DNA from: Burkholderiaceae bacterium | GTDB lineage: Bacteria; Pseudomonadota; Gammaproteobacteria; Burkholderiales; Burkholderiaceae_F | Length of the DNA: 36,364 bases | Direction of reading: 5' to 3' | Assembly (NCBI GenBank): GCA_036732825.1 | Contig: DAINBQ010000002.1 | Span: 1-36,364 of the forward strand | Shown: positions 5,478-36,364 of the stretch, in pieces | Numbering within the stretch: position 1 is the first letter of the stretch | Layout of the letters: each line of letters opens with the position of its first letter | The notes under the pieces: generated by a model | The model's database searches: none | What the model saw: only the letters and a program-made list of their open reading frames with translations | Told to the model about the DNA's origin: nothing | Made by a program: the position numbers and the translations under genes

Positions 5478-5675
5478 ATGCCGAAGTCGGGACGTCGAAC
5501 CGCGCGGCTGGTCGCGCTATGCATGCTGGGCTGTCTGCTGTTTAACTATCCGATCCTGGCGCTGTTCAACCGCCCTGCCGACTTTCTCGGCATTCCGGTG
5601 CTGTACGCATGGATCTTCGGCGCCTGGACGGTGCTGATTGTGCTGATGGCTCACGCGGTCGAACGCGAAGACTAG
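5478..5675 (+). CDS. DUF3311-like small two-TM membrane protein (accessory subunit type found with SSS transporters)
   Basis: 65 aa: MPKSGRRTARLVALCMLGCLLFNYPILALFNRPADFLGIPVLYAWIFGAWTVLIVLMAHAVERED. It has two hydrophobic helices around a DUF3311-like core (FN.P....G.P..Y.W). It lies upstream of an SSS-domain gene on the same strand. Confidence 0.6.
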   Translation: MPKSGRRTARLVALCMLGCLLFNYPILALFNRPADFLGIPVLYAWIFGAWTVLIVLMAHAVERED

Positions 5676-6034
5676 AACCTGTCTCAGAGTCCACGATGCA
5701 TCGCGTTGCGAAGAGAGGCGGGCGGATGCTAGGCGGTTGGCGAAGGACCGTAGCTTGGCCTACGGCCGAGCCGGCCAACAACGCAGACGCCCGCCACCGC
5801 AGCGGCAGAGCCGCTGCGTCGTCGGAAACCTCCCAAGAAGCGCACGCGCGTAGCGCGTGCTCAGCTTCGCAACCCTGCGGGGCGGGGTCGCTCATGTCGC
5901 AAGTGAGGGCGCGTGGCGTTGTTGCGGCTCCGGTCTTTGCATTGAGCAATGGTCCCCTAGCCGCGCCTAGCCTGCACCCAATGCAACGCCGCCGCGACCA
6001 CCGCGGATTTTGAGATAGGTTCCGGGCGCACAGC

Positions 6035-8788
6035 ATGCTCCAGGGCGGGTTCATCATCGCCACTTCGTTCGCCTACCTGGGGCTCCTTTTCGCGATCGCC
6101 TATTACGCCGACCAGCGGGCCGACAGCGGCCGCCCGGTCATAGCCAGCCCCTACATTTACAGCCTGTCGCTGGCCGTGTACGCGACGGCGTGGACGTTTT
6201 ACGGCAGTGTCGGCCGTGCCGCGAGCGACGGCGTCGGCTTCCTGCCGATCTACATCGGCCCGACGCTGATGATCGCGCTCTGGTGGCTGGTGCTGCGCAA
6301 GATCCTGCGCATCTCCAAGCAGAACCGCATCACGTCGCTGGCGGATTTCGTCGCTTCGCGTTACGGCAAGAGCGCGCTGCTGGGCGGCGTGGTCACGATC
6401 ATCGCGGTGGTCGGCATCGTGCCCTACATCTCCCTGCAATTGAAAGCGATCTCCAACAGTTTCACGATCTTGGTGCAGTACCCGGAGATCGTGATGCCAG
6501 CCAAGCTGGGCGCGGCACCCCTGTTGCAGGACACGGCACTGTGGGTGGCTCTGATCCTGGCACTGTTCACGATCGCATTCGGCACGCGCCATCTGGACGC
6601 CGCCGAACACCATCCGGGGATGGTGGCTGCGATCGCATTCGAATCCCTGGTCAAGCTGCTCGCGTTCGTCGCCGTCGGTGCTTTCGTGACCTGGGGAATT
6701 TACGACGGCTTTGGCGACGTGTTTGCGCGCGCCGCGGCGGTTCCGAGGATCGCTCAGTTGCTCACTCCGCTGGAAGTCGTGGCCGGCGGCTATGCGAGCT
6801 GGGTCTGGCTGACCATTCTGTCGATGCTGGCGATCATGTTCCTGCCACGCCAGTTCCAGGTCGCGGTCATCGAGAACATCGACGAAAGACACCTGAAGAA
6901 GGCGATCTGGGTGTTCCCCGCCTACATGCTGGCGATCAACATCTTCGTGCTGCCGATCGCCTTCGGCGGCCGGTTGCACTTTCCGGCAGGCAACGTCGAT
7001 GCCGACACCTTCGTGCTGACCTTGCCGATGGCCGAGCATCAGGAACTGTTGGCGCTGCTGGTGTTCATCGGCGGGCTATCTGCGGCCACCGGCATGGTGA
7101 TCGTCGAGACGATCGCGTTATCGACGATGGTCTGCAACGACCTGCTGATGCCCGTGCTGCTGCGCATGCGGCAGCTGCGCCTGGCCGCGAGGCCCGACCT
7201 GACCACCCTGATCCTTGGCATCCGGCGCGGCGTGATCGTGCTGGTGCTGCTGCTCGGGTATCTGTACTTCCGCCTGGCCGGCGAGGCCTATGCGCTGGTG
7301 TCGATCGGGCTGATCTCGTTCGCAGCGGTCGCGCAATTCGCCCCGGCCATCATCGGTGGCATCTACTGGCGGGGCGCAACACGGCGTGGTGCACTCGCCG
7401 GTCTGATCGCAGGGTTTGGCGTGTGGCTGTATACGCTGCTGCTGCCCGCGCTCTCACGCTCCGGCTGGTTGCCGATCTCCTTTCTGGAACACGGCCCGTT
7501 CAGCATCGAACTGCTAAAGCCGCTCGCCTTGTTCGGGCTCACGGGGCTGGACCAGATCACGCACGCGATGATCTGGAGCATGATCGCCAACATCGGACTG
7601 TATGTGGGCGTTTCAATGGCCGGCACGCAGTCGGCCGTCGAGCGCCGGCAGGCAAGCGTGTTCGTCGACGTGTTCCGGCACGAGGCCGGCGGAGCGCGCT
7701 TCTGGCGCGGCACGGCCTCGGCACGCGATCTGTATGCGGTGCTGGCTCGGTTCATCGGCGTCACCGCGGCTGACACCGCGTTTGCCGACTACGCGCGGGC
7801 GCGTGGACTTTCCTGGCCCAACGATGAACTGATGGCGGACGCCGAGTTCGTTCACTACGTCGAGACCCAACTGGCCGGCGCAATAGGCGCGGCTTCGGCC
7901 CGCATCATGATCGCCTCCGCGGTCAAGGAAGAGGCACTGACGCTGGAAGAGGTAAGCGCGATCCTCGACGAAGCGTCGCAGGTGGTCGTCTACAGCCACC
8001 GGCTGGAGCAGAAGTCGCGGGAACTGGAATTGGCCACCGCCGAACTGCGCGCGGCCAACGAACGACTGAAGGAACTCGACCGCCTGAAGGACGACTTCAT
8101 TTCCACGGTGACACATGAACTGCGCACGCCGCTGACCTCGATCCGCGCGTTCTCCGAGATACTGTTGGCCAACCCGAAGGTGGATCTTGACCAGCGCATG
8201 GAGTTTCTCGGCATCATCACCCGCGAAACCGAGCGGCTGACGCGGCTGATCAACCAGGTGCTTGACCTGGCGAAGATCGCTTCCGGCCGCGCTGAATGGC
8301 AAATGACGCGGGTCGACGTGCGCGAGGTCGTGGCCGACAGCCTGGCCCGGATGAGCCAGGTATTCAAGGAAAAGGGCGTTCAGCTCGAGGCTCGACTGCC
8401 CGAGCACACGCCGCCGGTGCAGGTCGATGTCGACCGCCTGATCCAGGTCTTGATGAACCTGCTGTCCAATGCATTGAAATTCAGTCCGGAGGGCCGCGGC
8501 CGGGTCGAGGTGACGTTGCGCGTGCTCGACGGCGAGGTGCGCATCGACGTGCGCGACAACGGGCCTGGTGTGCGCCGCGAGGATCAGGCACTCATCTTCG
8601 ACAAGTTCTGGCAGGGGGGCGACACTCTGGTCGCCAAGCCGCCGGGAACGGGTCTGGGGCTGAATATCAGCCGCCAGATCGTCGAATACTTCGGCGGCCG
8701 CATCTGGGTTGAAAGCGAACCGGGCGCCGGCGCATGCTTTGCTTTCACGCTGCCGCTGGCGCCGGCATCGACTCTCGCGCCCGCCTGA
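6035..8788 (+). CDS. Sensor histidine kinase with N-terminal sodium:solute symporter (SLC5/SSS) domain and STAC-like linker (CbrA/CrbS-type architecture, no C-terminal receiver)
   Basis: The first ~530 aa are polytopic and PutP/ActP-like. A soluble linker follows (ADAEFVHYVETQLAGAIGAASARIMIASAVK), then a coiled coil. All kinase boxes are intact: H-box FISTVTHELRTPLTSI (His codon 8114-8116), N-box NLLSNALKF, G1 DNGPGV, F FDKF and G2 GTGLGLNISRQIV. Confidence 0.9.
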   Translation: MLQGGFIIATSFAYLGLLFAIAYYADQRADSGRPVIASPYIYSLSLAVYATAWTFYGSVGRAASDGVGFLPIYIGPTLMIALWWLVLRKILRISKQNRITSLADFVASRYGKSALLGGVVTIIAVVGIVPYISLQLKAISNSFTILVQYPEIVMPAKLGAAPLLQDTALWVALILALFTIAFGTRHLDAAEHHPGMVAAIAFESLVKLLAFVAVGAFVTWGIYDGFGDVFARAAAVPRIAQLLTPLEVVAGGYASWVWLTILSMLAIMFLPRQFQVAVIENIDERHLKKAIWVFPAYMLAINIFVLPIAFGGRLHFPAGNVDADTFVLTLPMAEHQELLALLVFIGGLSAATGMVIVETIALSTMVCNDLLMPVLLRMRQLRLAARPDLTTLILGIRRGVIVLVLLLGYLYFRLAGEAYALVSIGLISFAAVAQFAPAIIGGIYWRGATRRGALAGLIAGFGVWLYTLLLPALSRSGWLPISFLEHGPFSIELLKPLALFGLTGLDQITHAMIWSMIANIGLYVGVSMAGTQSAVERRQASVFVDVFRHEAGGARFWRGTASARDLYAVLARFIGVTAADTAFADYARARGLSWPNDELMADAEFVHYVETQLAGAIGAASARIMIASAVKEEALTLEEVSAILDEASQVVVYSHRLEQKSRELELATAELRAANERLKELDRLKDDFISTVTHELRTPLTSIRAFSEILLANPKVDLDQRMEFLGIITRETERLTRLINQVLDLAKIASGRAEWQMTRVDVREVVADSLARMSQVFKEKGVQLEARLPEHTPPVQVDVDRLIQVLMNLLSNALKFSPEGRGRVEVTLRVLDGEVRIDVRDNGPGVRREDQALIFDKFWQGGDTLVAKPPGTGLGLNISRQIVEYFGGRIWVESEPGAGACFAFTLPLAPASTLAPA

Positions 8789-8865: not shown

Positions 8866-9261
8866 ATGAGCGAAACGACGCGCAAGGTGCTCATCGTTGA
8901 TGATGAGCCGAACATCGTCACCGCACTCGAATTCCTGCTCAAGCGGAGCGGCTATGACGTACGGCTGGCGGCGAACGGCGCCGAGGCGCTGGAGCAGGTC
9001 GAAACCTACCGGCCGGATGTCGTCCTCATGGACGTCATGATGCCGATCAAGAGCGGTTTCGAGGTCTGCCAGAGAATGCGGGAACGACCCGACCTGGCGC
9101 AGATCAAAATCGTGATGCTGTCGGCCAAAGGCAGCGAGGCCGAAGTCAGCAAGGGCCTGTCGCTCGGCGCCGACCTTTACATCACCAAGCCATTTTCCAC
9201 GCAGGAACTGGTGTCCACGATCAACCGGCTGTTCGAACCGGGCGGAACGCCGAGCCAATGA
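8866..9261 (+). CDS. Stand-alone CheY-like response-regulator receiver (no output domain)
   Basis: 131 aa. It has KVLIVDDEP, the phospho-acceptor context VVLMDVMMP (Asp56 codon 9031-9033), LSAKG and YITKPF. Its stop overlaps the next gene's ATG (ATGA at 9258-9261). Confidence 0.9.
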   Translation: MSETTRKVLIVDDEPNIVTALEFLLKRSGYDVRLAANGAEALEQVETYRPDVVLMDVMMPIKSGFEVCQRMRERPDLAQIKIVMLSAKGSEAEVSKGLSLGADLYITKPFSTQELVSTINRLFEPGGTPSQ

Positions 9262-11402
9262 GATTCTTGCGCGGCGTCTGGCTCTGGGTACTGATCGCCT
9301 GCGGCGGCGTGCTCCTGGTGCTCGCTACCGGGGCGTTACTGCTTTATCTCGCGACGGACACCGAACGCAGACCAATTCTCAGCGCTTTGGCAAGCGAATC
9401 CGCGCCCCTGTTGTCCTTTGGTACGACCATCCTGCTCGTGGTCGCCGGCATGGCGGCACACTGGCTGTTTCGCCGTTATCCGCATGCGGCACGCCAGCTC
9501 GCCGAGCAGTCGCGCAGCGTGCTGGCCGCCGAGCACGGCTTTCGCGTGGCTGCGGCGGACGCGCCGGAACTGGCCGACGTCGCCTCTGCAATCAACCAGT
9601 TGGCCGACGCCTACCACCGCGTCGAGCAGGATCTCGATCAGCGCAGCGCCGACGCGCGGGCGCGCGTCGAGGAAGAGCGTGACCGCTTCGCAGCTCTGAT
9701 GTCGGAGCTTTCGCAGGGCGTGCTGGTGTGCAACGCCGACGGGCGCATCCTGCTCTACAACTCGCGCGCCGCAGCGTTGCTGGCACCGTTCGTCGGCAGC
9801 GCACCGCGCGGCGATTACAAACCGCTCGGCCTCGGCCGTTCGGTACTCGCGTTGCTCGACCGCAATCAGGTCGCGCATGCATTGGACTTGATTCAGCAGC
9901 AGCTCGATCACGTAGATCGGCCGCACGCGCGTTTTGTCGTCTCGGTTGCCAATGGCGCTCTGCTCCGCGTGCAGGTGGCGCCGTTCCTCGGAGCGGAGGG
10001 GCTTGTAGCCGGCATGGTATTTACCTTCGATGACGTGAGCGGCATGGTCGGCCGCGAAGCTCAACGCCTGCGGCTATTGCAGTCGCTGGCGACCGGCACG
10101 CGTGCGCCTGCGGCCAACCTGCGCGCAGCGGCAGAGAACCTCGCCGGGTATCCGGACATGCCGGCCGACCAGCGCAAACAATTCGTTGAAATCGCCGTTG
10201 CCGAGTCGCGGATCCTGACTGACCGGCTGAACACCGCGCTGCGCGAGTATGCCGATGCACTGAAGGGCAGCCTGACGCTGGACGACATGCGCGCGGTCGA
10301 CTTGCTGGCAGTTGTGCAGCGGCGCATCAGCGATGTACTGCAGCTGCCGACCTCAATCGAGGAAGCCGACTCGGAACTGTGGTTGCGCGTAGACAGTTAT
10401 GCGATCGTGCAGGCGATGACCTTCCTGGCGGCACGCCTCGCTGGCGACTACCCGATCCACGGTTTTCAGCTGCGCGCCAGCAGCGGCGGCGGCTTTGCCG
10501 AGGTCGATCTGATCTGGACGGGCGCAATCGTCAGCAGCGAAGCACTGTCGCTGTGGGAAGGCGAACCAATGCGGATCGGAGCCGAGGAAACACCGCTCTC
10601 GCTGCGTGACGTGCTCGAGCGCCACGGCGCCGAGGCGTGGCTGCAGGTCGACAAGATCCGCCAAATCTCGCGCTTCCGCTTCCTGCTGCCGCGCGGAGAG
10701 GCTGCGGCGGCGTTGGCCTACAAGACAAGCACCGCGGAAAGCCGGCCGGAGTTCTATGACTTCGATTTGTTCGACCGTATCGATACGGCCGGTGCGCTGG
10801 CTGAACGCAAGCTGTCGGAGCTTTCGTACACGATATTCGATACGGAAACCACGGGACTGGAGCCGTCGGCCGGCGACGAGATAATCTCGATGGGTGCGGT
10901 TCGCATTGTCAACGGCCGTTTGCTGAAGCAGGAAGTGTTCGAGCAACTGGTCAACCCGCGCCGGTCGATCAGCCGCGAGTCAGTTGCCGTGCACGGAATC
11001 GAGGCGCGCCAGTTGCTCAATGAGCCGCCGATCGAACAGGTGCTGCCGCGGTTCCATCGCTTCTGCGAGGATACGGTGCTGGTGGCTCACAACGCCGCGT
11101 TCGACATGCGTTTCCTCGAACTGAAGGAAGCCGCCGCCGGAGTGCACTTCGGTCAGCCGGTGCTCGACACGCTTCTGCTTTCGGCGGTCGTGCACCCGAG
11201 CCTGGACAATCACGATCTGGATACGATTGCCGAACGTGTCGGTGTCCGCGTGATCGGGCGGCACACCGCGCTCGGCGATGCACTGGTGACAGCCGAAGTG
11301 TTCCTGCGTCTGCTGCCACTGCTTGCCGAACGTGGCATCGTCACTCTGGCGCAGGCGCTCGAGGCGTCTCGCGCAAGCTACCTTGCGCGCCTTCAGTACT
11401 GA
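9258..11402 (+). CDS. Membrane-anchored HAMP/PAS sensor with degenerate histidine-kinase core fused to a DEDDh (DnaQ/PolIII-epsilon-like) 3'-5' exonuclease
   Basis: Two N-terminal TM helices are followed by a HAMP-like segment and a PAS-like segment (LSQGVLVCNADGRILLYNSRAAALL). The DHp-like segment LQSLATGTRAPAANLRAAAENL aligns to an H-box with Thr where His is expected. I see no G1/G2 glycine boxes. The C-terminus carries ExoI FDTETTGL (D528, E530), ExoII VAHNAAFDMRFL (D616) and ExoIII HTALGDALVTAEVF (H669, D674). Confidence 0.85.
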   Translation: MRFLRGVWLWVLIACGGVLLVLATGALLLYLATDTERRPILSALASESAPLLSFGTTILLVVAGMAAHWLFRRYPHAARQLAEQSRSVLAAEHGFRVAAADAPELADVASAINQLADAYHRVEQDLDQRSADARARVEEERDRFAALMSELSQGVLVCNADGRILLYNSRAAALLAPFVGSAPRGDYKPLGLGRSVLALLDRNQVAHALDLIQQQLDHVDRPHARFVVSVANGALLRVQVAPFLGAEGLVAGMVFTFDDVSGMVGREAQRLRLLQSLATGTRAPAANLRAAAENLAGYPDMPADQRKQFVEIAVAESRILTDRLNTALREYADALKGSLTLDDMRAVDLLAVVQRRISDVLQLPTSIEEADSELWLRVDSYAIVQAMTFLAARLAGDYPIHGFQLRASSGGGFAEVDLIWTGAIVSSEALSLWEGEPMRIGAEETPLSLRDVLERHGAEAWLQVDKIRQISRFRFLLPRGEAAAALAYKTSTAESRPEFYDFDLFDRIDTAGALAERKLSELSYTIFDTETTGLEPSAGDEIISMGAVRIVNGRLLKQEVFEQLVNPRRSISRESVAVHGIEARQLLNEPPIEQVLPRFHRFCEDTVLVAHNAAFDMRFLELKEAAAGVHFGQPVLDTLLLSAVVHPSLDNHDLDTIAERVGVRVIGRHTALGDALVTAEVFLRLLPLLAERGIVTLAQALEASRASYLARLQY

Positions 11403-11416
11403 ACCGGAACGCCGCC

Positions 11417-12892
11417 ATGGCAGAGCACTTCCCGACTCCGATTGGCAAGCCCGACCGCCGACTTGCCGGCGAGCAGCGAACACTGGCACAGCCGCTGCGC
11501 AGCCTCATCCGCGGCGCGCCACTGGTCTGCAACGAAAAAGATACGGTTCGCACAGCCGTTCAGCGGATGCACGATGAAAATGTCGGTGCGATCGTCGTTC
11601 TCGACGGCCGGAACCGCCCGATCGGGATCTTCACCGAACGCGACCTGTTGCGGGCAACACTGCAGCTGCAGCTCGATGCGCCAGTGACCGACGTCATGTC
11701 AAGCGACCCGCTGTCTCTGCCCGACCACACGCCCTCGTACGAAGCTGCATTGCTGATGATCCAGCACGGCATCCGCCACGTGCTGGTCAATCGAGACGAT
11801 CAGCTTGTCGGCGTGATTTCGGAGCGTGATCTGTTTTCGCTGCAGCGCCTCGGCCTGGGCGAGCTGACGATGGAGACCCGGCTGGCACGCGACGTCGATA
11901 CATTGGCCGGCCTCGCCGGACGGGTGCGGCAGCTGACGCGGATACTGCTCGAACAGGGAGTCGCGGCAGAGCAGTTGACGTTGTTCGTTTCCGTGTTGAA
12001 CGACCGCATCTCCGAACGGATCATAGAGCTGGTGCGCAAGCGTCACAGCTGGGAGCGTATCGGCTGGTGCTGGCTTGCGTTCGGCAGCGAGGGTCGGCTC
12101 GAACAGACTTTCGCCACCGATCAGGACAACGGGCTGGTATTCGTTGCCCACGACGACCGTGCGCCGGCACGGGTGCGCGAGCTGCTTTTGCCGTTTGCGC
12201 GCGAAGTCAACGAGGCGCTCGATGCCTGCGGCTTTCCGCTGTGCAAGGGCAACGTGATGGCATCCAACCCGGAGCTGTGCCTGTCGATGGCGGAATGGAA
12301 GGCCAAGCTCGAAGGCTGGCTCGCCAACTCGGACCCGAAGGCGCTGCTAGATGCCGCGATATGTTTCGATTTCCGCGCGCTGTACGGTGACGCTCGACTG
12401 GCGTCGGACCTGCGCCGATGGTTCCTCGAAGTCACGCGCAAGCGGCCGAACTTCCTGCGCCTGATGGCAGAGAACGCGCTCCAGGTAAAGCCTCCGCTGG
12501 GTCGCTGGCGCGACTTCATCACCGAGGATGCACCCAACACACCGGGCACGATCAACCTGAAGATGTACGGCGTGCGGCCCTTCGTCGATGCGGCGCGCGT
12601 CTATTCACTGGCCCACGGGTTGCCGCAGACGAACACTGCAGACCGCCTGCGCGGGGCCGGATCCGCCGGCGCGCTGCCGACGGATGAAACCCGGTCGATG
12701 CTGGCTGCGTTCTTCCTGATCCAGCGCATCCGGCTCGCGCACCAGGCGACTTCCGACACCTTTGCTGCCCACGACGGATCGAACCGGATCGACCCGGACA
12801 CGCTCAATCAGCTCGACCGAAGATCGCTGAAGGAGGCGTTCCGTATCGCCCGCGACCTGCAGTCACGGCTCGCGATGGACTATCACTTGTAG
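11417..12892 (+). CDS. CBS-pair + DUF294 (GlnD-type Pol-beta-fold) nucleotidyltransferase with DUF294_C substrate-binding-like domain
   Basis: Two CBS motifs (VGAIVVLDGRNRPIGIFTERDLL and IRHVLVNRDDQLVGVISERDLF). The NTase signature is LAFGSEGRLEQTFATDQDNGLVF (G223-S224 at 12083-12088; D235/D237 at 12119-12127). The helical C-terminal half includes KMYGVRPFVDAARVYSL. The gene starts 14 nt after the exonuclease gene. Confidence 0.85.
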   Translation: MAEHFPTPIGKPDRRLAGEQRTLAQPLRSLIRGAPLVCNEKDTVRTAVQRMHDENVGAIVVLDGRNRPIGIFTERDLLRATLQLQLDAPVTDVMSSDPLSLPDHTPSYEAALLMIQHGIRHVLVNRDDQLVGVISERDLFSLQRLGLGELTMETRLARDVDTLAGLAGRVRQLTRILLEQGVAAEQLTLFVSVLNDRISERIIELVRKRHSWERIGWCWLAFGSEGRLEQTFATDQDNGLVFVAHDDRAPARVRELLLPFAREVNEALDACGFPLCKGNVMASNPELCLSMAEWKAKLEGWLANSDPKALLDAAICFDFRALYGDARLASDLRRWFLEVTRKRPNFLRLMAENALQVKPPLGRWRDFITEDAPNTPGTINLKMYGVRPFVDAARVYSLAHGLPQTNTADRLRGAGSAGALPTDETRSMLAAFFLIQRIRLAHQATSDTFAAHDGSNRIDPDTLNQLDRRSLKEAFRIARDLQSRLAMDYHL

Positions 12893-12900
12893 CGAGGGAC

Positions 12901-13842
12901 CTAGGCCTTCTGCACCTGCTGGCTCTTGATGACCGACATTGCCGCGGCGATCAGGCTCGCGACGTCCGCCAGATTGGCCGGAACGATCAGCGTGTTGTTC
13001 GTCTTCGCGAGGTTGCCGAACGCGTCGACGTAGCGATCCGCCACCCGCAGGTTCACTGCCTCCATCCCGCCCGGCTGGCGGACGGATTCCGCGACCATCT
13101 GGATCGCGCGCGCCGTGGCCTCCGCAACCGCGAGTACCGCGCCGGCTTCGCCCTGCGCGATGTTGATCTGCGCCTGCTTCTCGCCCTCGGATCGCGCGAT
13201 TTCGGCCTCGCGCGCGCCGGTCGCGATGTTGATCTGCTCCTGCTTGCGCCCTTCGGACGATGCGATCAGCGCGCGCTTCTCGCGCTCGGCGGTGATCTGC
13301 GCCTGCATCGCGTGCAGGATCGCATTCGGTGGAGTGATGTCCTTGATTTCATAGCGCAGGACCTTGACGCCCCAGTTCATCGCCGCTTCGTCGATAGCGG
13401 AGACGACGCTGTGGTTGATGAACTCGCGCTCCTCGAAGGTCTTGTCGAGCTCGAGCTTGCCGATCACCGAACGCAGCGTCGTCTGCGCCAGCTGCGTGAT
13501 CGCGAGGATGTAGTTGCTGGCGCCGTACGAGGCCCGCTGCGGATCGGTGACCTGGAAATACAGCACGCCGTCCACCTGCAGCTGCGTGTTGTCCTTCGTG
13601 ATGCAGACCTGGCTCGGCGTATCGAGCGGAACCTCCTTCAGGCTGTGCTTGTAGGCCGCGCGATCGATGAAAGGGATGACGATGTTGAGGCCGGGCTGCA
13701 GCGTCGCGTGGAACTTGCCGAGCCGCTCGACCACCCAGGCGCTCTGCTGCGGCACGACCTTGACCGCCTTCACGACGAACGTGATCGCGACGACCAGAAC
13801 GACGATCGCGATGATCGCAACGCCGTCGACATAGGTGAACAT
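12901..13842 (-). CDS. qmcA: SPFH/band-7 (stomatin/paraslipin-like) membrane protein
   Basis: N-terminal TM helix, then VKVVPQQSAWVVERLGKFHATLQPGLNIVIPFID...VDGVLYFQVTDP...WGVKVLRYEIKDITPP and an A/E/Q-rich coiled coil. It pairs with the upstream nfeD, as in ybbJ-ybbK. Confidence 0.88.
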   Translation of the reverse strand: MFTYVDGVAIIAIVVLVVAITFVVKAVKVVPQQSAWVVERLGKFHATLQPGLNIVIPFIDRAAYKHSLKEVPLDTPSQVCITKDNTQLQVDGVLYFQVTDPQRASYGASNYILAITQLAQTTLRSVIGKLELDKTFEEREFINHSVVSAIDEAAMNWGVKVLRYEIKDITPPNAILHAMQAQITAEREKRALIASSEGRKQEQINIATGAREAEIARSEGEKQAQINIAQGEAGAVLAVAEATARAIQMVAESVRQPGGMEAVNLRVADRYVDAFGNLAKTNNTLIVPANLADVASLIAAAMSVIKSQQVQKA

Positions 13843-13853
13843 GAATGGATCTC

Positions 13854-14285
13854 CTACCGCGGCTTCGCGGCGACGATGAGGCGGTTGGCCTGGATCTCGC
13901 GGATCACGAAGTCACCGGCGGCCGGCAGTTCGCCCGGTGCGAGCTCGACGTCCCAGGTCGCACCGCGGTACTGCGCGCGCGCCGTACGACCCGGCGTCCA
14001 GGCGTCGACGCGCAGGGTCTGGCCGATATCCATGTGCTGCACCCGATCGTCCGCGCGCTCGTGCAGGCGCCGGCCGAACCGGGTCGAGCGCAGCCACATC
14101 GACCCGCCCAGTCCGATCGCTGCGGCGATCACGAGCTGGAGCGCCAGCGACGCACCGGCCAGCGCACCGAGGCCGGCGGCACCGAGCGCCACTGCGATCA
14201 CCAGCAGGTAGAAGGTCCCCGTCAGCAGTTCGGCGACCAGCAGGCCGAAGCCGATGACGAACCACCAGACGTACCCCTCCATCAC
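13854..14285 (-). CDS. NfeD family membrane protein
   Basis: Three hydrophobic segments (WWFVIGFGLLVAELLTGTFYLLVIAVALGAAG...) plus a C-terminal OB-like soluble domain (GQTLRVDAW...ARAQYRGATWDVEL). It ends 11 nt upstream of the SPFH gene. Confidence 0.8.
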   Translation of the reverse strand: MMEGYVWWFVIGFGLLVAELLTGTFYLLVIAVALGAAGLGALAGASLALQLVIAAAIGLGGSMWLRSTRFGRRLHERADDRVQHMDIGQTLRVDAWTPGRTARAQYRGATWDVELAPGELPAAGDFVIREIQANRLIVAAKPR

Positions 14286-14322
14286 TCACTCCCGGTTGGA
14301 CGCTTCTCGCGACGGCCGCTAT

Positions 14323-16719
14323 TCAAGCAGAACGGGCGAGCCGCTGCCAGGTTTCCACGACGGTGTCCGGATTCAGCGAAATCGACTCGATGCCCTGCTC
14401 CATCAGCCATTCCGCGAAGTCCGCGTGGTCCGATGGCCCCTGGCCGCAGATGCCGATGTACTTGCCGCGCGCGCGGCACGCGGAGATCGCCTGCGCAATC
14501 AGTGCCGTGACCGCGGGGTCGCGCTCGTCGAAGCCCTCGGCAACCAGCCCCGAGTCGCGGTCGAGCCCGAGCGTCAGCTGCGTCAGGTCGTTCGAACCGA
14601 TCGAGAAACCGTCGAAATAATCGAGGAAGCGGTCGGCGAGAATCGCATTGGAAGGCACCTCGCACATCATGATCAGGCGCAGGCCGCCGCTGCCGTCGGC
14701 GGCCTTGCCGCTGTCGCGCGACAGGCCATGCTCCGCAAGCAATTCGGTGACGCGCCGCGCCTCGGTCAGCGTGCGCACGAACGGCACCATGATCTGGACG
14801 TTCGTGAGCCCCATTTCCTCGCGAACCCTCTTCAGCGCGGCCGCTTCCATGCGGAAGCACTCGCGGAACGAATCCGCGATGTAGCGCGCGGCGCCACGAA
14901 AGCCGAGCATCGGGTTCTCCTCGTCGGGCTCGTAGCGGGTGCCCCCGATCAGCTTCTTGTATTCGTTGCTCTTGAAGTCCGACATGCGGACGATCACCGG
15001 CTTGGGCCAGAACGCAGCCGCGATCGTCGCGATGCCTTCCGCCAGCCTGGCCTCGAAGAACGCGCGTGGGCTGCGGTAACCGGCGGAAAGCCGCTCGACG
15101 GCGTGCTTGAGCTCCGGATCGAGATTCGGATAGTCGAGCACCGCTTTCGGGTGCACGCCGATGTTGTTGTTGATGATGAACTCGAGTCGCGCGAGCCCGA
15201 CGCCGGCGTTCGGCAAGGACTGGAAGTCGAACGCCAGGTGCGGATTGCCGACGTTCATCATGATCTTCACCGGTATCTTCGGCATCTCGCCGTGCATCAC
15301 CGACTCGACTTCCATTTCGAGCGCGCCGGCGTAGATGTTGCCGGTATCGCCTTCCGCGCAGCAGACCGTGACGACAGCGCCTTCGACCAGGTCCTCGGTC
15401 GCCGTGCCGCAGCCGACGACGGCCGGGATGCCGAGTTCGCGCGCGATGATGGCCGCATGACAGGTGCGGCCGCCGCGATTCGTGACGATGGCCGATGCGC
15501 GCTTCATCACGGGCTCCCAGTTGGGATCCGTCATGTCCGTCACGAGCACGTCGCCCGGTTGCACGCGATCCATCTCGCGTACGTCCTGGATGATGCGAAC
15601 CGGCCCGATCCCGATCTTCTGGCCGATCGCCCGGCCGGAAGCCAGGATTGCGCCCTTGCCCTTCAGGCGGAAGCGCTGCTGCTTCTCGTTGCCGGCCTGC
15701 GATTTCACCGTCTCGGGGCGCGCCTGCAGGATGTAGATGCCGCCGTCGACGCCGTCCTTGCCCCACTCGATGTCCATCGGCCGGCCATAGTGCTGCTCGA
15801 TCGTCACCGCGTAGCGGGCGAGCTCGAGCACGTCGGCATCGGTGAGCGAAAACGAGTGGCGCTCGGTCTCCGGGACGTCGACCGTCCGCACGGTCCGTCC
15901 GTTCGCGGCCGCGGGATCGAACTCCATCTTGATCAGTTTCGAGCCCAGGCTGCGGCGGATGATCGGGAACTTGCCAGCCGCCAGCATCGGCTTGTGCACG
16001 TAGAACTCGTCGGGGTTGACGGCCCCCTGCACGACGGTCTCGCCCAGGCCATAGCTCGACGTGATGAAGACGACGTCCCGGAATCCCGACTCGGTGTCCA
16101 TCGTGAACATGACACCCGCCGCCCCTCGGTCGCTGCGCACCATGCGCTGCACACCCGCCGAAAGCGCCACCTCGCCTTGCGCGTAGCCCTTGTGCACGCG
16201 GTACGCGATCGCGCGGTCGTTGTAGAGCGAGGCGAACACCTCCCGGATGCGATGCACAACCGCGTCGAGCCCGGACACGTTCAGGAAGGTCTCCTGCTGT
16301 CCGGCGAACGACGCGTCCGGCATGTCCTCGGCCGTCGCGCTGGAGCGGACAGCGAATGATGTTTCACTTGAAGATCCGTGCGTAAGCTCTTGAAATATTA
16401 TTCTAATTTCCGCCTCGAAATCAGGCGGGAACGGACAGGAAACGATCCATTCGCGGATCTCGCGACCGGCTTCGGTCAGCGCCCGCACATCGTCGACATC
16501 GAGCGTCGCCAGCCGCTTTGAGATGCGCTCCCTCAGTTGTCCCGCGTCGAGAAAGGCGCGAAAAGCCTCCGCCGTGGTCGCAAACCCGTCCGGGACGTTG
16601 ATGCCGGCTTGAGACAGCTGGCTCAGCATCTCGCCCAGCGATGCGTTCTTGCCGCCGACCGATTCGACATCGCTCATCCGGAGCTGGGAAAACGGTACGA
16701 CGTACTTGCCGCGCTGCAT
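14323..16719 (-). CDS. ppsA: Phosphoenolpyruvate synthase (pyruvate, water dikinase)
   Basis: [37 protein letters not shown], the phospho-His region [24 protein letters not shown] and the C-terminal PEP-utilising domain [12 protein letters not shown]. The start was trimmed to [10 protein letters not shown] (ATG at 16719, AGGAGA RBS); the track start is 16800. Confidence 0.95.
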
Positions 16720-16811
16720 GCGCTCTCCTGATCGAGCTTCGTGTGACAGAATCGGCGGCATTTTACCGGTCGCACTTCGTTCGATCGTGCGCCGCATCAA
16801 CGTGAGCCTGC

Positions 16812-17660
16812 ATGCCCGATCGCCTCACCACTTCCTACGACCGCACCGTCTTCTTCGTATCGGACGGAACCGGCATCACGGCCGAGACACTCGGTCACAG
16901 CGTGCTGACGCAGTTCGAGAACCTGCGCTTCCGGCCGCAGCGGCTGCCGTTCATCGACTCGGCCGACAAGGCCCGCGAGGCGGCGGTTCGCATCAACGAG
17001 GCCGGAGCGCGGGACGGCAAGCGTGCCGTGGTGTTCTCGACGCTCGTCAACCCGGCGGTCGCTGCCACGCTGCGCGCCGGCACAGACGCTTTCTTCGTCG
17101 AGATGTTCGAGACTTTCGTCGAGCCGCTCGAGCGCGAGCTGGGACTGCAGTCGACGCACACGATCGGCCGTTCGCACAACATCGCGGTCAACTCCGAGGA
17201 CTACAAGAACCGCATCGAGGCCATCAACTTCACGCTTGCGCATGACGACGGCCAGTCGGCCCGCGGACTGGAAAAGGCCGACGTCATCCTGGTTGGCGTG
17301 TCGCGATCCGGCAAGACGCCGACGAGCCTCTACCTGGCCATGCAATACGGCGTGAAGGCCGCCAACTATCCGCTGATCCCCGAGGACTTCGAGCGCGGGC
17401 AACTACCGAGCGCGCTTCCTCAGCACAAGCCGAAGATCTTCGGCTTGTCGATCAGCCCGGAACGGCTGGCCGAAGTGCGTCACGAGCGGCGTCCCAACAG
17501 CCGCTACGCCTCGCCGGAAAACTGCCGCTACGAGGTCGAGGCTGCCGAACGCATGATGCGACGCGAAGGAATCCGCTGGCTCTCTTCGACGACCAAATCG
17601 ATCGAGGAGATCGCGGCGACGATCATGCAGGAAGTCCGGCTCGAAAGACGTTCCTACTAA
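16812..17660 (+). CDS. ppsR: PEP synthase regulatory protein (bifunctional kinase/pyrophosphorylase, DUF299)
   Basis: [25 protein letters not shown] and the P-loop [16 protein letters not shown]. Divergent from ppsA, the conserved arrangement. Confidence 0.93.
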
Positions 17661-31937: not shown

Positions 31938-31971
31938 TCAGTGCTCCTGCTCGATTGATCTGCTCGGTACG

Positions 31972-31993
31972 AAAAAGGGGCTTGCGCCCCTTT
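31972..31993 (-). terminator. Rho-independent-type hairpin between rpsB and tsf (probable attenuator)
   Basis: The minus strand reads GAAAGGGGC-GCAA-GCCCCUUUUUC: a GC stem with a GCAA tetraloop and a U-run, about 25 nt after the rpsB stop. An rpsB-tsf intergenic attenuator is known in E. coli. Confidence 0.6.
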
Positions 31994-32017
31994 CTCGCCG
32001 CCGCCGCCCGCGGGCGG

Positions 32018-32767
32018 CTACTCCTGCTCTTCGCTGACTTCGACGAATTCCTCGTCGCCGGTGGCTGCCTGCACGACTCCCTGCAGCGCCGCCGCCTTGC
32101 CCTCGAGCGCCGCATCGGCAATGCCGCGGGCGTACAGCCGCACCGCGCGGCTTGAATCGTCGTTGCCCGGGATCACGTAGGCGATGCCCTCCGGCGAGTG
32201 ATTGGTATCGACGATCGCGACGACCGGAATGCCGAGCTTGGCGGCTTCCTGCACCGCGATCTTGTGATAGCCCACGTCGATGACGAACAGCGCATCGGGC
32301 AGCGCGTTCATGTCCTTGATGCCGCCGATCGACTTGTTGAGCTTCTCGACCTCGCGTGCGAAGTCGAGCGCTTCCTTCTTCGTCATGCGCTCGGTGCCGT
32401 TGTCGGCAACGATCTGCTCCATCTCCTTCAGCCGCTTGATCGATACCTTGACGGTCTTGAAGTTCGTGAGCATGCCGCCGAGCCAGCGCTGGTCGACGAA
32501 TGGCATGCCGCACCGCTTGGCCTCCTCGACGATCGTGTCGCGTGCCTGGCGCTTGGTGCCGACGAACAGGATCGTCCCGCGATTGGCAGCCAGCTGGCGC
32601 ACGAACTTGGTCGCGGCCTGGAACTGCTCGAGCGTGCGCTCGAGATTGATGATGTGGATCTTGTTGCGGTGACCGAAGATGTACGGTGCCATCTTCGGGT
32701 TCCAGAATCGCGTCTGGTGGCCGAAGTGAACGCCGGCCTCCAGCATCTGGCGCATAGTGACTGACAT
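32018..32767 (-). CDS. rpsB: 30S ribosomal protein S2
   Basis: [32 protein letters not shown]... A GGAGAGGAAAG RBS precedes the ATG at 32767. The track start 32854 was rejected. Confidence 0.95.
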
Positions 32768-33033
32768 GGCTTTCCTCTCCAAGGTTGGGTCCTGCGCATG
32801 CGCCGAGGCGGACCTTGGCTGCCATTGACTGCAATGAGCAGCTTCGGACCGCACCTTGGTGGCGCTGCGCGCGATTTCCGTCGCGAGCCGGGCGGACTTG
32901 CATCCTGCTTCGCTACATCCCGCTTCGCGGGATCTTGGCTTGCAGCATCTCGCCTCAAGATCGTGCGTTGGGGCCCATTCGGCGCCGGCGCACGAAATTC
33001 AACTAACTTCTTGATTTTCAAGCATCGAGACAG
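32768..33033 (-). promoter_or_regulatory. Putative long structured rpsB 5' leader
   Basis: About 265 nt lie between a minus-strand TATAAT (33045..33040) and the rpsB ATG. The stretch contains several hairpins and three CCAAG(G/A)U copies complementary to an ACCUUGG that abuts the SD. S2-autoregulated rpsB leaders are known in gammaproteobacteria. The 5' end is inferred from the promoter guess only. Confidence 0.4.
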
Positions 33034-33069
33034 CCCGATATTATATCCACCTTCCCGCCCGCCGCTCAA
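33011..33069. promoter_or_regulatory. Candidate overlapping divergent sigma-70 promoters for rpsB (minus) and map (plus)
   Basis: Minus strand: TTGAGC (33069..33064), 18-nt spacer, TATAAT (33045..33040). Plus strand: TTCAAG (33017-33022), 16-nt spacer, TATTAT (33039-33044). The two -10 hexamers occupy the same AT-rich box, GATATTATATCC. Confidence 0.35.
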
Positions 33070-33090
33070 GCTTGGAAAGCCCCCGCCGCC

Positions 33091-33933
33091 ATGCCGATCG
33101 TGATCAAGAACCCGCAGGACATCGAAGGCATGCGTCTGGCCGGGCGGCTCGCGGCAGAAGTGCTCGATTTCATCGCGCCGCACGTCAGGCCGGGCGTCAC
33201 CACCGGCGAGCTTGACCGACTGTGCCACCAGTACATGGTCGAGGCACAGGGCACCGTTCCGGCCCCGCTGAACTACGCGCCGCCGGGCTACCGGCCGTTT
33301 CCGAAGGCGATCTGCACGTCGGTCAACCACCAGGTCTGCCACGGCATCCCGGGGGACCGCGTCCTGAAGGCGGGCGACGTGGTCAACATCGACGTGACGG
33401 TCATCAAGGACGGGTACCACGGTGACACCAGCCGCATGTACTTCGTCGGCGAACCCTCGATCGCGGCTCGCAGGCTGTGCGAGGTGACCTACGACTGCAT
33501 GTGGCTCGGCATCCAGCAGGTCCGTCCGAGCGCGACGATCGGCGACATCGGCCATGCAATCCAGACGCACGCGGAAAAGCACGGCTACAGCGTCGTCCGC
33601 GAATTCTGCGGGCACGGAATCGGCCGCAAGTTCCACGAGGAGCCGCAGATCCTGCATTACGGCAAGCCCGGCACGCTGGAATCGCTCCAGGCAGGAATGA
33701 CCTTCACGGTCGAGCCGATGATCAACGCGGGACGCCGGGAGATCAAGGAACTCGCCGATGGCTGGACGATCGTGACCAAGGATCATTCGCTGTCGGCCCA
33801 GTGGGAGCACACGGTGCTCGTCACGGATATCGGCTACGAAGTGATGACGCTTTCGGCAGGCGCGCCACCGGTGCCGGCGTTTGTCAATGCCGGACAGTCC
33901 GGCGCCGCGGCGACGGAGCCCGCCGCCGCCTGA
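33091..33933 (+). CDS. map: Type I methionine aminopeptidase
   Basis: VCHGIPGDRVLKAGDVVNIDVTVIKDGYHGDTSRMY, FCGHGIG and EPMIN...WTIVTKDHSLSAQWEHTV. Confidence 0.95.
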   Translation: MPIVIKNPQDIEGMRLAGRLAAEVLDFIAPHVRPGVTTGELDRLCHQYMVEAQGTVPAPLNYAPPGYRPFPKAICTSVNHQVCHGIPGDRVLKAGDVVNIDVTVIKDGYHGDTSRMYFVGEPSIAARRLCEVTYDCMWLGIQQVRPSATIGDIGHAIQTHAEKHGYSVVREFCGHGIGRKFHEEPQILHYGKPGTLESLQAGMTFTVEPMINAGRREIKELADGWTIVTKDHSLSAQWEHTVLVTDIGYEVMTLSAGAPPVPAFVNAGQSGAAATEPAAA

Positions 33934-36364
33934 TGTCGCAGGCACCCGGCGGCACGCTTGCCGTCCCCCGCGAAGCGACTCCGGTGATGAACGATGTTGC
34001 GTTCAAGCTGCGCGACCGGCTGCGCCAGGAACGCACAGCCATCATTGACCGGTTCAAGGCCGGAGGTCCGGTCGACAGCCTGCTGCGGGGGCTCGCGCGC
34101 GCGGTCGACCGCCTTCTGCGGGAGGTCGCGGAAGCGACTGGAATCACGCGCCGCGCGACGCTGATTGCGGTAGGCGGCTATGGCCGCGGCGAGCTGTTTC
34201 CGCACTCGGATGTCGACGTACTGATCCTGCTGCGGCAGCCGCCGACGGCCGAGGACCGGGCAACGATCGAGAACCTGATCGGCCTGCTCTGGGATCTCGG
34301 CCTCGCGCTCGGGCACAGCGTGCGCACGATCGACGAGTGTCACGAAGAGGCGGCGCGCGACGTGACGGTGCTCACGTCGATGCTCGAGTCGCGGCTGATT
34401 GCCGGCTCGCGATCGCGCTACGAGTCGTTCGCGCGCGCCGTCGTCGGCGCGCTGGACCGCGAGGCCTACTTCCGGGCCAAGGTGCTCGAGCAGCAGCAGC
34501 GCCACACGAAATACAACGAGGCACCGTACACGCTCGAACCCAACGTCAAGGAAAGCCCCGGCGGCCTGCGCGACCTGCACGTCGTGTTGTGGATCGCGCG
34601 CGCCGGCGGCTACGGCGCGACCTGGTCCGAACTGGCCCGGCGCGGGTTCATCACGCCGCCCGAGGCCCGCATCATCCGCTCGAGCGAACGGACACTGAGA
34701 GAGATCCGGGTACGTCTGCACCTCGTGACCAACCGCCGCGAGGATCGGCTGGTATTCGACGTCCAGAACCAGGTCGCGCAGATGAGTGGCCTGCACGCGA
34801 CCGCCAACCGGCGCGCCAGCGAAGTGCTGATGCAGCACTACTACCGCTCGGCCAAGGTCGTCGCGCAGATGAACACGATCCTGCTGCAGAACATCGAGCA
34901 CCGGCTGTTCGCGCACCTCTACGCGCCCGAATCGGAGCCTGGCCAGGCGATCGACTCCACCTTCGTCGCGCGCAACGAGTTGCTCGACATCGACGACGAG
35001 CAGGCATTCGAGCGCGATCCGAACGGCATCCTCCGGGCTTTCCTGGTCATGGCCCAGCGTGCGGAACTGAAGGGAATGTCGGCGCGGCTGATGCGCGCGC
35101 TGTGGCACGCGCGCGTCCGGATCGACGCTCGCTACCGCCGCGATCCGGTAAACCGGGCGACCTTCCTCTCGCTGATGCAGCAGCCGCGCGGCGTGCTGCA
35201 TGAACTGCGGCGCATGAACCAGCTGTCGGTGCTGGGGCGCTACATGCCCGTGTTCCGCCGCATCGTCGGGCAGATGCAGCACGACCTGTTTCACGTCTAC
35301 ACGGTCGACCAGCACATCCTGCAGGTGCTGCGCAATCTGCGCCGCTTCATGCTGGCCGAACACGCGCACGAGTACCCGTTGTGCAGCCAGCTGATGGTCG
35401 ACTTCGAGAAGCCCTGGCTGCTGTACATCGCCGCGCTTTTCCACGACATCGCGAAGGGCCGCGGCGGCGACCACAGCGAGCTTGGAAGCCGCGACGCACG
35501 CCGCTTCTGCCGCGAGCACGGCCTCGACCGCGCGGATACCGAGCTCGTCGAGTTCCTGGTCGCGCACCATCTCTCGATGTCGCTGGTCGCGCAGAAGCAG
35601 GACCTGGCCGATGAAGCGGTCGTGCGCCGTTTTGCCGACCTCGTCCGGACCGAACGCAGGCTGATCGCGCTCTACCTGCTGACCGTTGCCGACATCCGTG
35701 GCACCAGCCCGCGCGTCTGGAACGCATGGAAAGGCAAGCTGCTCGAAGATCTGTTTCGCGCAACCCGGGCGCTGCTCGGCGGCGGCAGCGTCTCGAGCAG
35801 CGCCGTGCTGGAAGGCCGCAAGCAGGAGGCGCTGAAGATACTGCGCCTCTACGGTCTTCCGGACAGCGCGCGCGAAGAGCTGTGGGAACAGTTCGACGTC
35901 GTCTACTTCCTGCGTCACAGTGCCCAGGACATCGCCTGGCACACGCGCTCGCTCTACACGCGGGTGCGCACCGAGCAGCCGATCGTGCGCGCGCGCCTGG
36001 CGCGTATCGGCGAAGGCGCAGAAGTCCTGATCTACGTGAAGGACCAGAAGGACCTGTTCGCGCGCGTCTGCGGCTATTTCGACAGCCGCAACCTGAGCAT
36101 TCTCGACGCCCGGATTCACACGACGCGGCACGGCTACGCGCTCGATACCTTTCTCGTGACCGATCATGGACGGTCGCCGCATTACCGCGAGTTGCTGAGC
36201 CAGGTCGAACACGAGCTCGCCGAGTGGATCGCGCGCCAGCACGAGCTGCCGCCGCCGGTGAAGGGCCGCATGTCGCGCCAGTCTCGTCACTTTCCGGTGT
36301 CGCCTGCCGTGCATCTGCAGCCCGACGAGCGTGGCCAGCATTACCTGCTGTCGGTGACCGCCAC
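33933..36364 (+). CDS. glnD: [Protein-PII] uridylyltransferase/uridylyl-removing enzyme; C-terminus runs off the window end
   Basis: Not in the track because it is truncated. My plus-strand translation reads MSQAPGG...IAVGGYGRGELFPHSDVDVLILL (NTase motif), then the HD domain LYIAALFHDIAKGRGGDHSELG. The ATG overlaps the map stop (TGATG at 33931-33935). An alternative start lies 18 codons downstream. Confidence 0.92.
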   Translation, partial: MSQAPGGTLAVPREATPVMNDVAFKLRDRLRQERTAIIDRFKAGGPVDSLLRGLARAVDRLLREVAEATGITRRATLIAVGGYGRGELFPHSDVDVLILLRQPPTAEDRATIENLIGLLWDLGLALGHSVRTIDECHEEAARDVTVLTSMLESRLIAGSRSRYESFARAVVGALDREAYFRAKVLEQQQRHTKYNEAPYTLEPNVKESPGGLRDLHVVLWIARAGGYGATWSELARRGFITPPEARIIRSSERTLREIRVRLHLVTNRREDRLVFDVQNQVAQMSGLHATANRRASEVLMQHYYRSAKVVAQMNTILLQNIEHRLFAHLYAPESEPGQAIDSTFVARNELLDIDDEQAFERDPNGILRAFLVMAQRAELKGMSARLMRALWHARVRIDARYRRDPVNRATFLSLMQQPRGVLHELRRMNQLSVLGRYMPVFRRIVGQMQHDLFHVYTVDQHILQVLRNLRRFMLAEHAHEYPLCSQLMVDFEKPWLLYIAALFHDIAKGRGGDHSELGSRDARRFCREHGLDRADTELVEFLVAHHLSMSLVAQKQDLADEAVVRRFADLVRTERRLIALYLLTVADIRGTSPRVWNAWKGKLLEDLFRATRALLGGGSVSSSAVLEGRKQEALKILRLYGLPDSAREELWEQFDVVYFLRHSAQDIAWHTRSLYTRVRTEQPIVRARLARIGEGAEVLIYVKDQKDLFARVCGYFDSRNLSILDARIHTTRHGYALDTFLVTDHGRSPHYRELLSQVEHELAEWIARQHELPPPVKGRMSRQSRHFPVSPAVHLQPDERGQHYLLSVTA

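Follow-up and report, generated by a model that had tools for sequence, protein, structure and literature searches.

What does a histidine-kinase scaffold do once it has lost the chemistry of a kinase and been joined to a nuclease? This question is raised by one gene in a 36,364-nucleotide (nt) stretch of a Burkholderiaceae genome (NCBI GenBank assembly GCA_036732825.1, contig DAINBQ010000002.1, positions 1 to 36,364 of the forward strand; hereafter the window, with features on the plus strand unless stated otherwise). The open reading frame (ORF) at 9258-11402 (+) is real, starts with ATG and encodes a protein of 714 amino acids (aa), named 'DNA polymerase III subunit epsilon' or 'exonuclease domain-containing protein' in public databases. 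From its N-terminus, this focal protein comprises two transmembrane (TM) helices, HAMP-like helices, a PAS domain, a DHp-like hairpin, a CA-like alpha/beta domain, a linker and a DEDDh exonuclease domain. An earlier note, made from the DNA letters alone, had proposed that a kinase-derived scaffold deprived of its chemistry is fused here to a DEDDh exonuclease, a structural claim which is supported below by profile and fold evidence. It had also proposed a function, which we estimate to be correct with a probability of about one half: the protein would be a membrane-anchored pseudo-histidine kinase with a built-in exonuclease output, gated by a phosphorylated receiver docking on the dead DHp.

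Profile and model evidence together support the view that the middle of the focal protein is a complete histidine-kinase scaffold, with TM, HAMP-like, PAS, DHp and CA parts. A family profile of residues 136-482, built from 18 diverse members, was compared with the PDB (hmmsearch) and matched VicK (7.7e-16), ThkA (9.6e-11), HK853 (3.4e-10), ZraS (5e-7) and DivL (6.3e-6), with alignments running through the DHp and CA domains alike. Similarly, hhalign against the C-terminal part of the kinase encoded nearby in the window gave E=4.7e-5 over 202 columns, at 26% identity. An AlphaFold2 (AF2) model of the focal protein, built on 78 diverse sequences, has a mean predicted local distance difference test score (pLDDT) of 84.9, with 90-96 over the CA-like domain. 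In this model, helices 261-297 and 303-338 form the DHp-like hairpin (residues 263-340, 10044..10277), which lacks a phospho-acceptor and is also recognized by hhalign and by hmmsearch (VicK, ThkA, HK853). The alpha/beta domain at 342-479 corresponds to the CA-like (GHKL-fold) domain with replaced ATP motifs (residues 341-482, 10278..10703), recognized by hhalign and Foldseek (WalK, VicK, ThkA, HK853). Indeed, the best Foldseek matches of the model in the PDB are WalK (1.7e-22) and VicK (6.8e-18), followed by YF1, LOV kinases, ThkA, HK853 and DivL, and the NifL-NifA complex is also among the matches (9qq6, 3.7e-10). Pfam finds neither HisKA nor HATPase_c in residues 262-484, even at E<=5; single-profile libraries are thus blind to the kinase-like module, which comes to light only with a family profile or a structure. 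WalK/VicK-type HAMP-PAS kinases, the best matches in both sequence and fold (~470 residues), have the same domain order up to the CA domain, but they are active kinases without a C-terminal nuclease, whereas the focal protein has one.

Judged by its residues, the focal protein has lost kinase chemistry, as neither the acceptor His nor any of the N, G1 and G2 boxes is left. In the hhalign alignment, LATGTRAPAANLRA falls on VTHELRTPLTSIRA of the neighbouring kinase, with Thr279 at the position of the phospho-acceptor His, and in hmmsearch alignments the phospho-His of VicK and HK853 faces the family consensus Glu (Thr in the focal protein). No His occurs anywhere in residues 263-340 of the focal protein. 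Among the 78 diverse members, the composition of column 279 is E50 Q6 T5 A4 D4 V2 H2; given this variability (E, Q, T, A, D, V), it is not a conserved acceptor of any kind, and the two members with a His at this position are also devoid of the N, G1 and G2 boxes. The N-box Asn is replaced by Arg393 (R in 55 of the 78 members), the G1 Asp by Trp420 in DLIWTG (W in 75/78), and the G2 GxGxG by TPLSL (hhalign). The HisKA phosphatase motif E/DxxT/N is absent too: residues 279-283 read T-G-T-R-A, with G280 at +1 and A283 at +4, and the family has mostly G at +1 and A, S or G at +4. Arg282 is kept in 76 of the 78 members, and helix 1 presents a conserved face below this residue (xANxRAAxExL). Receivers dock on this region of DHp helix 1 in real kinases. 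Overall, the DHp helix below the His position reaches a conservation of 0.57, above that of DHp helix 2 and of the CA domain. The earlier note had aligned this region on the H-box of the neighbouring kinase with a His-to-Thr replacement, an alignment reproduced by both hhalign and hmmsearch. The loss of the G boxes that it described is borne out by R393, W420 and TPLSL at N, G1 and G2 and by the absence of Pfam HATPase_c at E<=5, and the profile alignment it had proposed as a check for a conserved His at the acceptor position reveals none, the family having mostly Glu.

The C-terminal domain (residues 523-714 plus stop, 10824..11402), by contrast with the kinase-like module, is readily recognized as a DEDDh 3'-5' exonuclease of the DnaQ/PolC type. 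It is predicted to be catalytically competent: D528 and E530 (Exo I), D616 (Exo II), and H669 and D674 (Exo III, H-x4-D) are all present, and each of them is at least 90% conserved in the 78 members. Pfam RNase_T matches residues 526-682 (2.5e-34) and is, with a borderline PAS_4, the only Pfam match of the whole protein. The domain also matches the PolC exonuclease 2p1j in the PDB (2.3e-40), and its modelled fold (523-711) retrieves with Foldseek the PolC exonuclease (root-mean-square deviation of 1.7 Å over 190 columns), the epsilon subunit (TM-score 0.85) and DinG. Although DnaQ/PolC-type and RNase T-type DEDDh exonucleases have the fold and the five catalytic residues in common with the focal protein, we know of no characterized DEDDh exonuclease carrying a TM-HAMP-PAS-DHp-CA module. 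All NCBIfam matches are far below the cut-offs and cover the exonuclease domain only (110.3 vs 222.7 bits for dnaQ_proteo TIGR01406, and 104.7 vs a 196-bit cut-off for PRK05711). The exonuclease domain is joined to the scaffold by a linker (residues 483-522, 10704..10823), which is variable and predicted to be disordered (pLDDT below 50 for 484-502), except for SRPEFYDFDLF (residues 495-505, nt 10740-10772). No other stretch of the protein is as conserved as this motif (0.83), which all distant members checked retain. The location of such a conserved motif in a predicted disordered linker suggests that it may be a docking or autoinhibitory peptide.

The N-terminal part completes the resemblance to a sensor kinase. 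Two TM helices occupy residues 1-71 (9258..9470), the least conserved region of the protein (mean column conservation 0.35): hydropathy delimits two hydrophobic stretches at residues ~8-31 and ~48-70, separated by a loop of ~16 aa, and the AF2 helices of this membrane region span 2-32 and 38-90. The next segment (residues 72-130, 9471..9647) is a helix-loop-helix, with a helix up to 90, a loop at 91-102 and a helix at 103-125 in the AF2 model. With a full-length family profile, focal residues 52-296 align to VicK 15-233 (E=1.5e-8), a range spanning the VicK HAMP. Nevertheless, Pfam detects no HAMP in the focal protein even at E<=5, and we therefore call segment 72-125 only HAMP-like in spite of its fitting geometry and of the VicK alignment. 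Residues 131-262 (9648..10043) contain a conserved signalling helix (EEERNRLAALMSEL) followed by a PAS domain. The latter is detected by Pfam PAS_4 at residues 150-261 (E=4.6e-5, 24.0 bits vs a gathering cut-off of 23.1), forms a five-strand sheet at 154-259 in the AF2 model, and is matched by WalK PAS structures with the family profile (3e-7); its residues N168, G191 and R194 are invariant in the family. The residues named in the earlier note, T279 (ACC, 10092-10094), D528, E530, D616, H669 and D674, are all found where it placed them, including the five DEDDh residues it had described as intact; the short loop between two N-terminal TM helices is recovered by hydropathy (~16 aa, against ~20 in the note), and its PAS-like segment is now a PAS_4 match above the gathering cut-off with a modelled PAS sheet.

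This architecture is not a peculiarity of one genome. When 1.84 billion cluster representatives were scanned with residues 265-510 (HMMER), 672 clusters (50% identity) were found at E<=1e-3, of which 444 reached E<=1e-10. Almost every full-length match is 700-750 aa long (about 715), with the module at the same position. Such a shared layout in 672 clusters indicates one fixed architecture, rather than a chance feature or a one-off fusion. Conservation is highest in the linker motif (0.83) and in the exonuclease domain (0.71), followed by the PAS domain (0.64) and its preceding signalling helix (0.51), and is lowest in the TM region (0.35). No description of a histidine-kinase-like scaffold fused to a DEDDh exonuclease was found in the literature searched. 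The focal family is widespread and undescribed, while both of its components are of known kinds.

Which partners might act on such a protein? We compared 80 loci from GTDB species representatives (Burkholderiales, Rhodocyclales and related groups; mainly betaproteobacterial), and found the gene order to be an SLC5-type kinase, a gene encoding only a receiver (REC), the focal gene and a gene for a CBS-DUF294 nucleotidyltransferase. In the window, the kinase (6035..8788, 917 aa) matches Pfam HisKA (6.4e-19) and HATPase_c (4.7e-31) and has no receiver of its own. Its boxes are intact in translation (H-box THELRTP, N-box NLLSNA, G1 DNGPG, G2 GTGLGL), and its N-terminal 600 aa (6035-7834), a multi-pass membrane region and putative SLC5-like transporter domain, match the 'histidine kinase' PDB entry 10ed at 1.4e-71. 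Pfam finds no SSF match in this kinase even at E<=5, and its orthologue in the distant locus L081 has a faint one. The stand-alone receiver (8866..9261, 131 aa) matches Pfam Response_reg (2.7e-32, residues 8-119), carries no output domain, and has D12/D13, D56, S86 and K108 in place. The CBS-CBS-DUF294 putative nucleotidyltransferase (11417..12892, 491 aa; Pfam DUF294 2.9e-43, DUF294_C 1e-41, CBS 6.5e-25) is encoded from 14 nt after the focal gene. For the latter protein, only the CBS domains match a solved structure, and the DUF294 part matches none. There is no DNA-binding response regulator in the module, and none is conserved across the loci.

The receiver gene is the closest associate of the focal gene. 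It lies directly upstream in 69 of the 74 loci where the contig allows it to be assessed, and the DUF294 gene lies at most 800 nt downstream in 58 of 69 (three more have it upstream of the kinase). In the window, the focal start codon ATG (9258-9260) overlaps the receiver stop codon TGA (9259-9261), the sequence reading CCAATGAGA; the ATGA coupling described in the earlier note is thus directly readable. The same 4-nt overlap occurs in 46 of 67 loci, and a 1-nt overlap in three more, while kinase and receiver genes are 77 nt apart in the window. Even among the five relatives whose module is only ~30% identical, four have a receiver directly upstream. Adjacency, overlap and persistence at ~30% identity strengthen the case for a functional link with the upstream receiver, as far as comparative genomics can indicate it. 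Apparent fusions between receiver and pseudo-kinase were noticed in two loci (L027 and L072) and rejected, as they are separate ORFs, with a 30-nt gap in L027.

The cast of this module is reminiscent of a regulon known in Pseudomonas and Vibrio. In Pseudomonas, the SLC5/STAC kinase MxtR (CrbS) activates acs, actP and the PP_0354-PP_0353 operon via the DNA-binding regulator ErdR (CrbR) (PMC9927547; bioRxiv 10.64898/2026.09.07.749794). PP_0354 is a cNMP-CBS-DUF294 protein and PP_0353 an exonuclease of the RNase_T family (PMC9927547), and their genes are the most strongly MxtR/ErdR-dependent ones (PMC9927547; bioRxiv 10.64898/2026.09.07.749794). Further Pseudomonas counterparts are documented for Pflu5625 (PMC5715377) and for PA3232-PA3235 (PMC9765439). 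Both systems include a DUF294 nucleotidyltransferase and a DEDDh exonuclease, along with a kinase that is of the SLC5 type in Pseudomonas and putatively so in the present module. This module, conserved and related to the CrbS/MxtR regulon, counts four genes with the focal gene in third place, a wider context that the earlier note overlooked. Distant members point to the same connection. The complete set in L081 (8158-14151) includes a cNMP-CBS-DUF294 gene, as in PP_0354, alongside two tandem acetyl-CoA synthetase genes, and a relative with ~30% identity (L086, 3590-7681) also adjoins two tandem acs genes. Adjacency to acs and a cNMP-bearing DUF294 protein in distant members tie the module to the acetate switch. 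Rhodoferax ferrireducens (L054, 15284-17064, minus strand) has a second, stand-alone pair arranged as in Pseudomonas: a DUF294 gene overlaps the start of a gene for a 218-aa DEDDh exonuclease, 5.5 kb from the fused module.

The two systems differ in how signal and output are connected. In the gamma-proteobacterial system the link is transcriptional, via ErdR/CrbR, and the exonuclease is short and stand-alone, whereas the betaproteobacterial module has a receiver-only regulator and an exonuclease equipped with a 500-aa pseudo-kinase sensor. With a bare receiver in place of the transcription factor and a dead-kinase sensor added to the exonuclease, the link appears to be post-translational; read most simply, control has shifted from transcription to signalling between proteins. 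Kinases of the CrbS type are hybrids that carry a receiver themselves (PMC5715377). As the window kinase lacks the C-terminal receiver of these hybrid kinases, the stand-alone receiver may be its detached counterpart.

The mechanism that we favour for the focal protein would run as follows. By homology with CrbS/MxtR (acetate and short-chain acids), the SLC5-type kinase would sense a carboxylate-type carbon signal and autophosphorylate, and it would then phosphorylate the receiver at Asp56. In the key step, the phosphorylated receiver would dock on the DHp of the pseudo-kinase, as phosphorylated DivK does on DivL in what is known as reverse signalling, without being phosphorylated or dephosphorylated by it. 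The resulting change in the DHp/CA dimer, together with the PAS input, would be relayed through the SRPEFYDFDLF linker and switch the paired exonuclease domains on or off. More speculatively, the DUF294 nucleotidyltransferase might extend or modify an RNA, a DNA or an oligonucleotide whose 3' end is trimmed by the exonuclease.

Pseudo-kinases reading phosphorylated receivers have precedent. DivL is a pseudo-kinase with a Tyr in place of the His, which binds the phosphorylated single-domain regulator DivK; its output is the allosteric control of another kinase, CckA, and its CA domain is more kinase-like. A PAS-DHp-CA scaffold with a replaced acceptor His and a receiver-only partner exists in Caulobacter crescentus, but the focal protein differs in its fused exonuclease output, in the loss of all three N, G1 and G2 boxes, and in that its receiver is a putative partner, proposed from adjacency. 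NifL is likewise derived from a histidine kinase, lacks phosphotransfer and acts by protein-protein contacts. It keeps a nucleotide-binding GHKL domain, regulates a separate activator, NifA, and, unlike the focal protein, has no fused catalytic output, membrane anchor or receiver partner.

Residue covariation between receiver and focal protein was computed as normalised mutual information with average product correction on 64 non-redundant loci, uncorrected for phylogeny. DHp columns were 2.8-fold enriched among the top 50 pairs, against 1.4-fold for the DHp of the real kinase, used as a positive control. We regard this as a weakly suggestive sign of a link between receiver and DHp, and not as proof that the two touch. 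Several observations weigh against gating by the receiver. The top covarying pairs are dominated by a few clade-splitting columns, and column-wise means differ little between domains. At the specificity positions, the pseudo-DHp has A286, A290 and A291 where the real kinase has T, A and F in the hhalign alignment. The receiver could equally be a detached CrbS-like hybrid-kinase receiver acting as a phosphate sink. Six orphan members (four Accumulibacter loci, L060 and P0243) have no receiver, kinase or DUF294 gene nearby, yet keep the DHp motif, and DHp conservation therefore does not require a neighbouring receiver. Finally, deletion of PP_0354/PP_0353 causes only mild defects on pyruvate and propionate (PMC9927547).

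Some of these observations fit a protein regulated solely by its own PAS/HAMP input from a small-molecule ligand or a membrane cue, the receiver being a phosphate sink or acting on the DUF294 protein and its adjacency reflecting co-expression. The high conservation of the PAS domain and signalling helix, with N168, G191 and R194 invariant, is in line with such autonomy, as are the orphans, which keep all motifs without receiver or kinase neighbours; a split receiver is also plausible given that CrbS-type kinases carry their own (PMC5715377). However, the receiver gene is tied more tightly to the focal gene (69/74) than the DUF294 gene is (58/69), its overlap with the focal gene is kept in most lineages whereas 77 nt separate it from the kinase gene, and dimerisation or partner binding is the only evident reason for keeping a DHp that has lost its chemistry. 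We consequently consider regulation by PAS/HAMP input alone rather unlikely, while it deserves to be taken seriously. It is improbable, in our view, that the pseudo-kinase acts upstream, modulating the kinase or the receiver in complexes of the RetS-GacS style, or by sequestering or protecting the phosphorylated receiver, with an exonuclease that is constitutive or merely localised at the membrane. Kinase and focal protein are both membrane proteins of one operon, the DHp fold is a dimerisation module, and kinases that sense through a partner transporter typically have an anchor of two TM helices joined by a minimal loop, all of which would suit this role. A specific TM-TM interface is nevertheless hard to reconcile with the TM region being the least conserved part (0.35), and conservation peaks in the exonuclease (0.71) and the linker motif (0.83), the pattern expected of a protein whose purpose is its nuclease; a heterodimer between DHp domains so diverged (26% identity in the hhalign region) is also unlikely.

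Two other readings are further removed from the data. The focal protein would be a membrane-tethered paralogue of DnaQ/PolC-like proofreading or repair enzymes, with an N-terminal part serving only for localisation, if one relied on its database name and on the best matches of its C-terminal domain (PolC, epsilon proofreading domains and DinG). Yet these matches concern the exonuclease domain alone, with NCBIfam scores far below the cut-offs, a 500-aa sensor scaffold is conserved in 672 clusters, and the conserved neighbours are signalling and nucleotidyltransferase genes instead of replication genes, so that we judge this very improbable. Hardly credible at all is a cryptic active kinase or phosphotransferase whose acceptor would be non-canonical, be it Thr279, Glu or some other residue, or which would receive its phosphate in trans from the SLC5 kinase. 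The His found at 279 in two of 78 members would speak for it, but these same two proteins lack the N, G1 and G2 boxes, the variability of position 279 is incompatible with a conserved acceptor, and no ATP-binding motif survives anywhere in the family. Gating of the exonuclease by receiver docking remains the reading that we favour, at the even odds given above.

The surroundings of the module deserve some description. An involvement in anti-phage defence, considered because a nuclease is encoded beside a nucleotidyltransferase, was rejected, because PADLOC gives no complete system, only domain-level matches (a Cas-associated DEDDh model at 2.9e-39 and PDC-S48) and none for the DUF294 protein, and because the locus lies among housekeeping genes (guaB, smpB, ppsA/ppsR, rnhB, lpxB, lpxD, bamA, rseP, dxr, cdsA, uppS, pyrH and tsf). 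Upstream of the kinase, a small membrane ORF (5478..5675, 65 aa) without any Pfam family has a homologue directly before the kinase in L001-L003, L006 and L007, and in the distant locus L081 an ORF of 76 aa directly adjoins the kinase. It is placed as CbrX is upstream of cbrA, and its membership of the module is tentative. In the window, small ORF and kinase are separated by a 350-nt insertion (5684-6033) that is absent from L001-L003, L006 and L007, where the two genes abut. Rich in GC and strongly structured (minimum free energy of -170.9 kcal/mol, z = -2.6), the insertion may break the coupling between small ORF and kinase. As smpB is nearby, a tmRNA was considered for this insertion and rejected: neither ARAGORN nor Rfam returned a match (no tRNA, tmRNA or Rfam family).

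Downstream of the focal gene, the arrangement varies among lineages. Two DUF294 paralogues are found there (about 9800-12800) in the Rhodocyclales loci L025-L029, L033, L035-L038, L043, L044, L047, L048, L067, L072, L073, L079 and L080; according to the ORFs read in L027 and L072, the first paralogue is the shorter of the two and seems to have no CBS pair. The Accumulibacter orphans (L076, 7551-12176; L057, L071 and L077) have a gene of the phosphofructokinase family (803 aa) directly after the focal gene, and SPFH and DUF4178 genes before it. The region directly downstream of the module in the window (12901-17660) starts with convergent SPFH/band-7 and NfeD genes, followed by ppsA, encoding phosphoenolpyruvate synthase (14323-16800, minus strand), and by the gene of its regulator PpsR (Kinase-PPPase, 16812-17660). 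The adjacency of ppsA is kept in the closest relatives (L001-L003 and L006-L008), which is intriguing beside the pyruvate phenotype of Pseudomonas pp_0353. Finally, two long minus-strand ORFs (33834-36341 and 31938-33945) have no Pfam family, and in this sequence of 65% GC they are probably shadow ORFs, for instance of map (33091-33933, plus strand).

What would such a module mean for the bacteria carrying it? We can envisage, tentatively and with the balance of probability somewhat against it, a two-component pathway ending in a nuclease, in which a carboxylate-sensing SLC5 kinase, a receiver, a dead scaffold, and an exonuclease paired with a DUF294 protein make up a signal-controlled system adding and trimming 3' ends. 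To our knowledge, pseudo-histidine kinases are represented by few cases (DivL, NifL and RetS-like proteins), whose output is always another regulator. The present family, of at least 672 clusters, joins a dead kinase scaffold to a predicted nucleic-acid-cutting enzyme, and nearly always comes with a translationally coupled receiver-only protein; the public annotation as 'DNA polymerase III subunit epsilon' is a misnomer for it. The betaproteobacterial module packs sensor, receiver, nuclease and nucleotidyltransferase into one operon, and could be reconstituted in vitro. It is relevant both to two-component signalling, with respect to nuclease output and reverse signalling, and to work on the acetate switch: if the proposed pathway is true, it would open a first way into the mechanism of the DUF294/exonuclease pair in the CrbS/MxtR acetate regulon, a pair that has long gone unexplained. 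Gating of the nuclease by the receiver would give these bacteria a direct path, acting post-translationally, from a kinase that senses metabolites to the processing of nucleic-acid 3' ends, and two-component signalling a new class of output.

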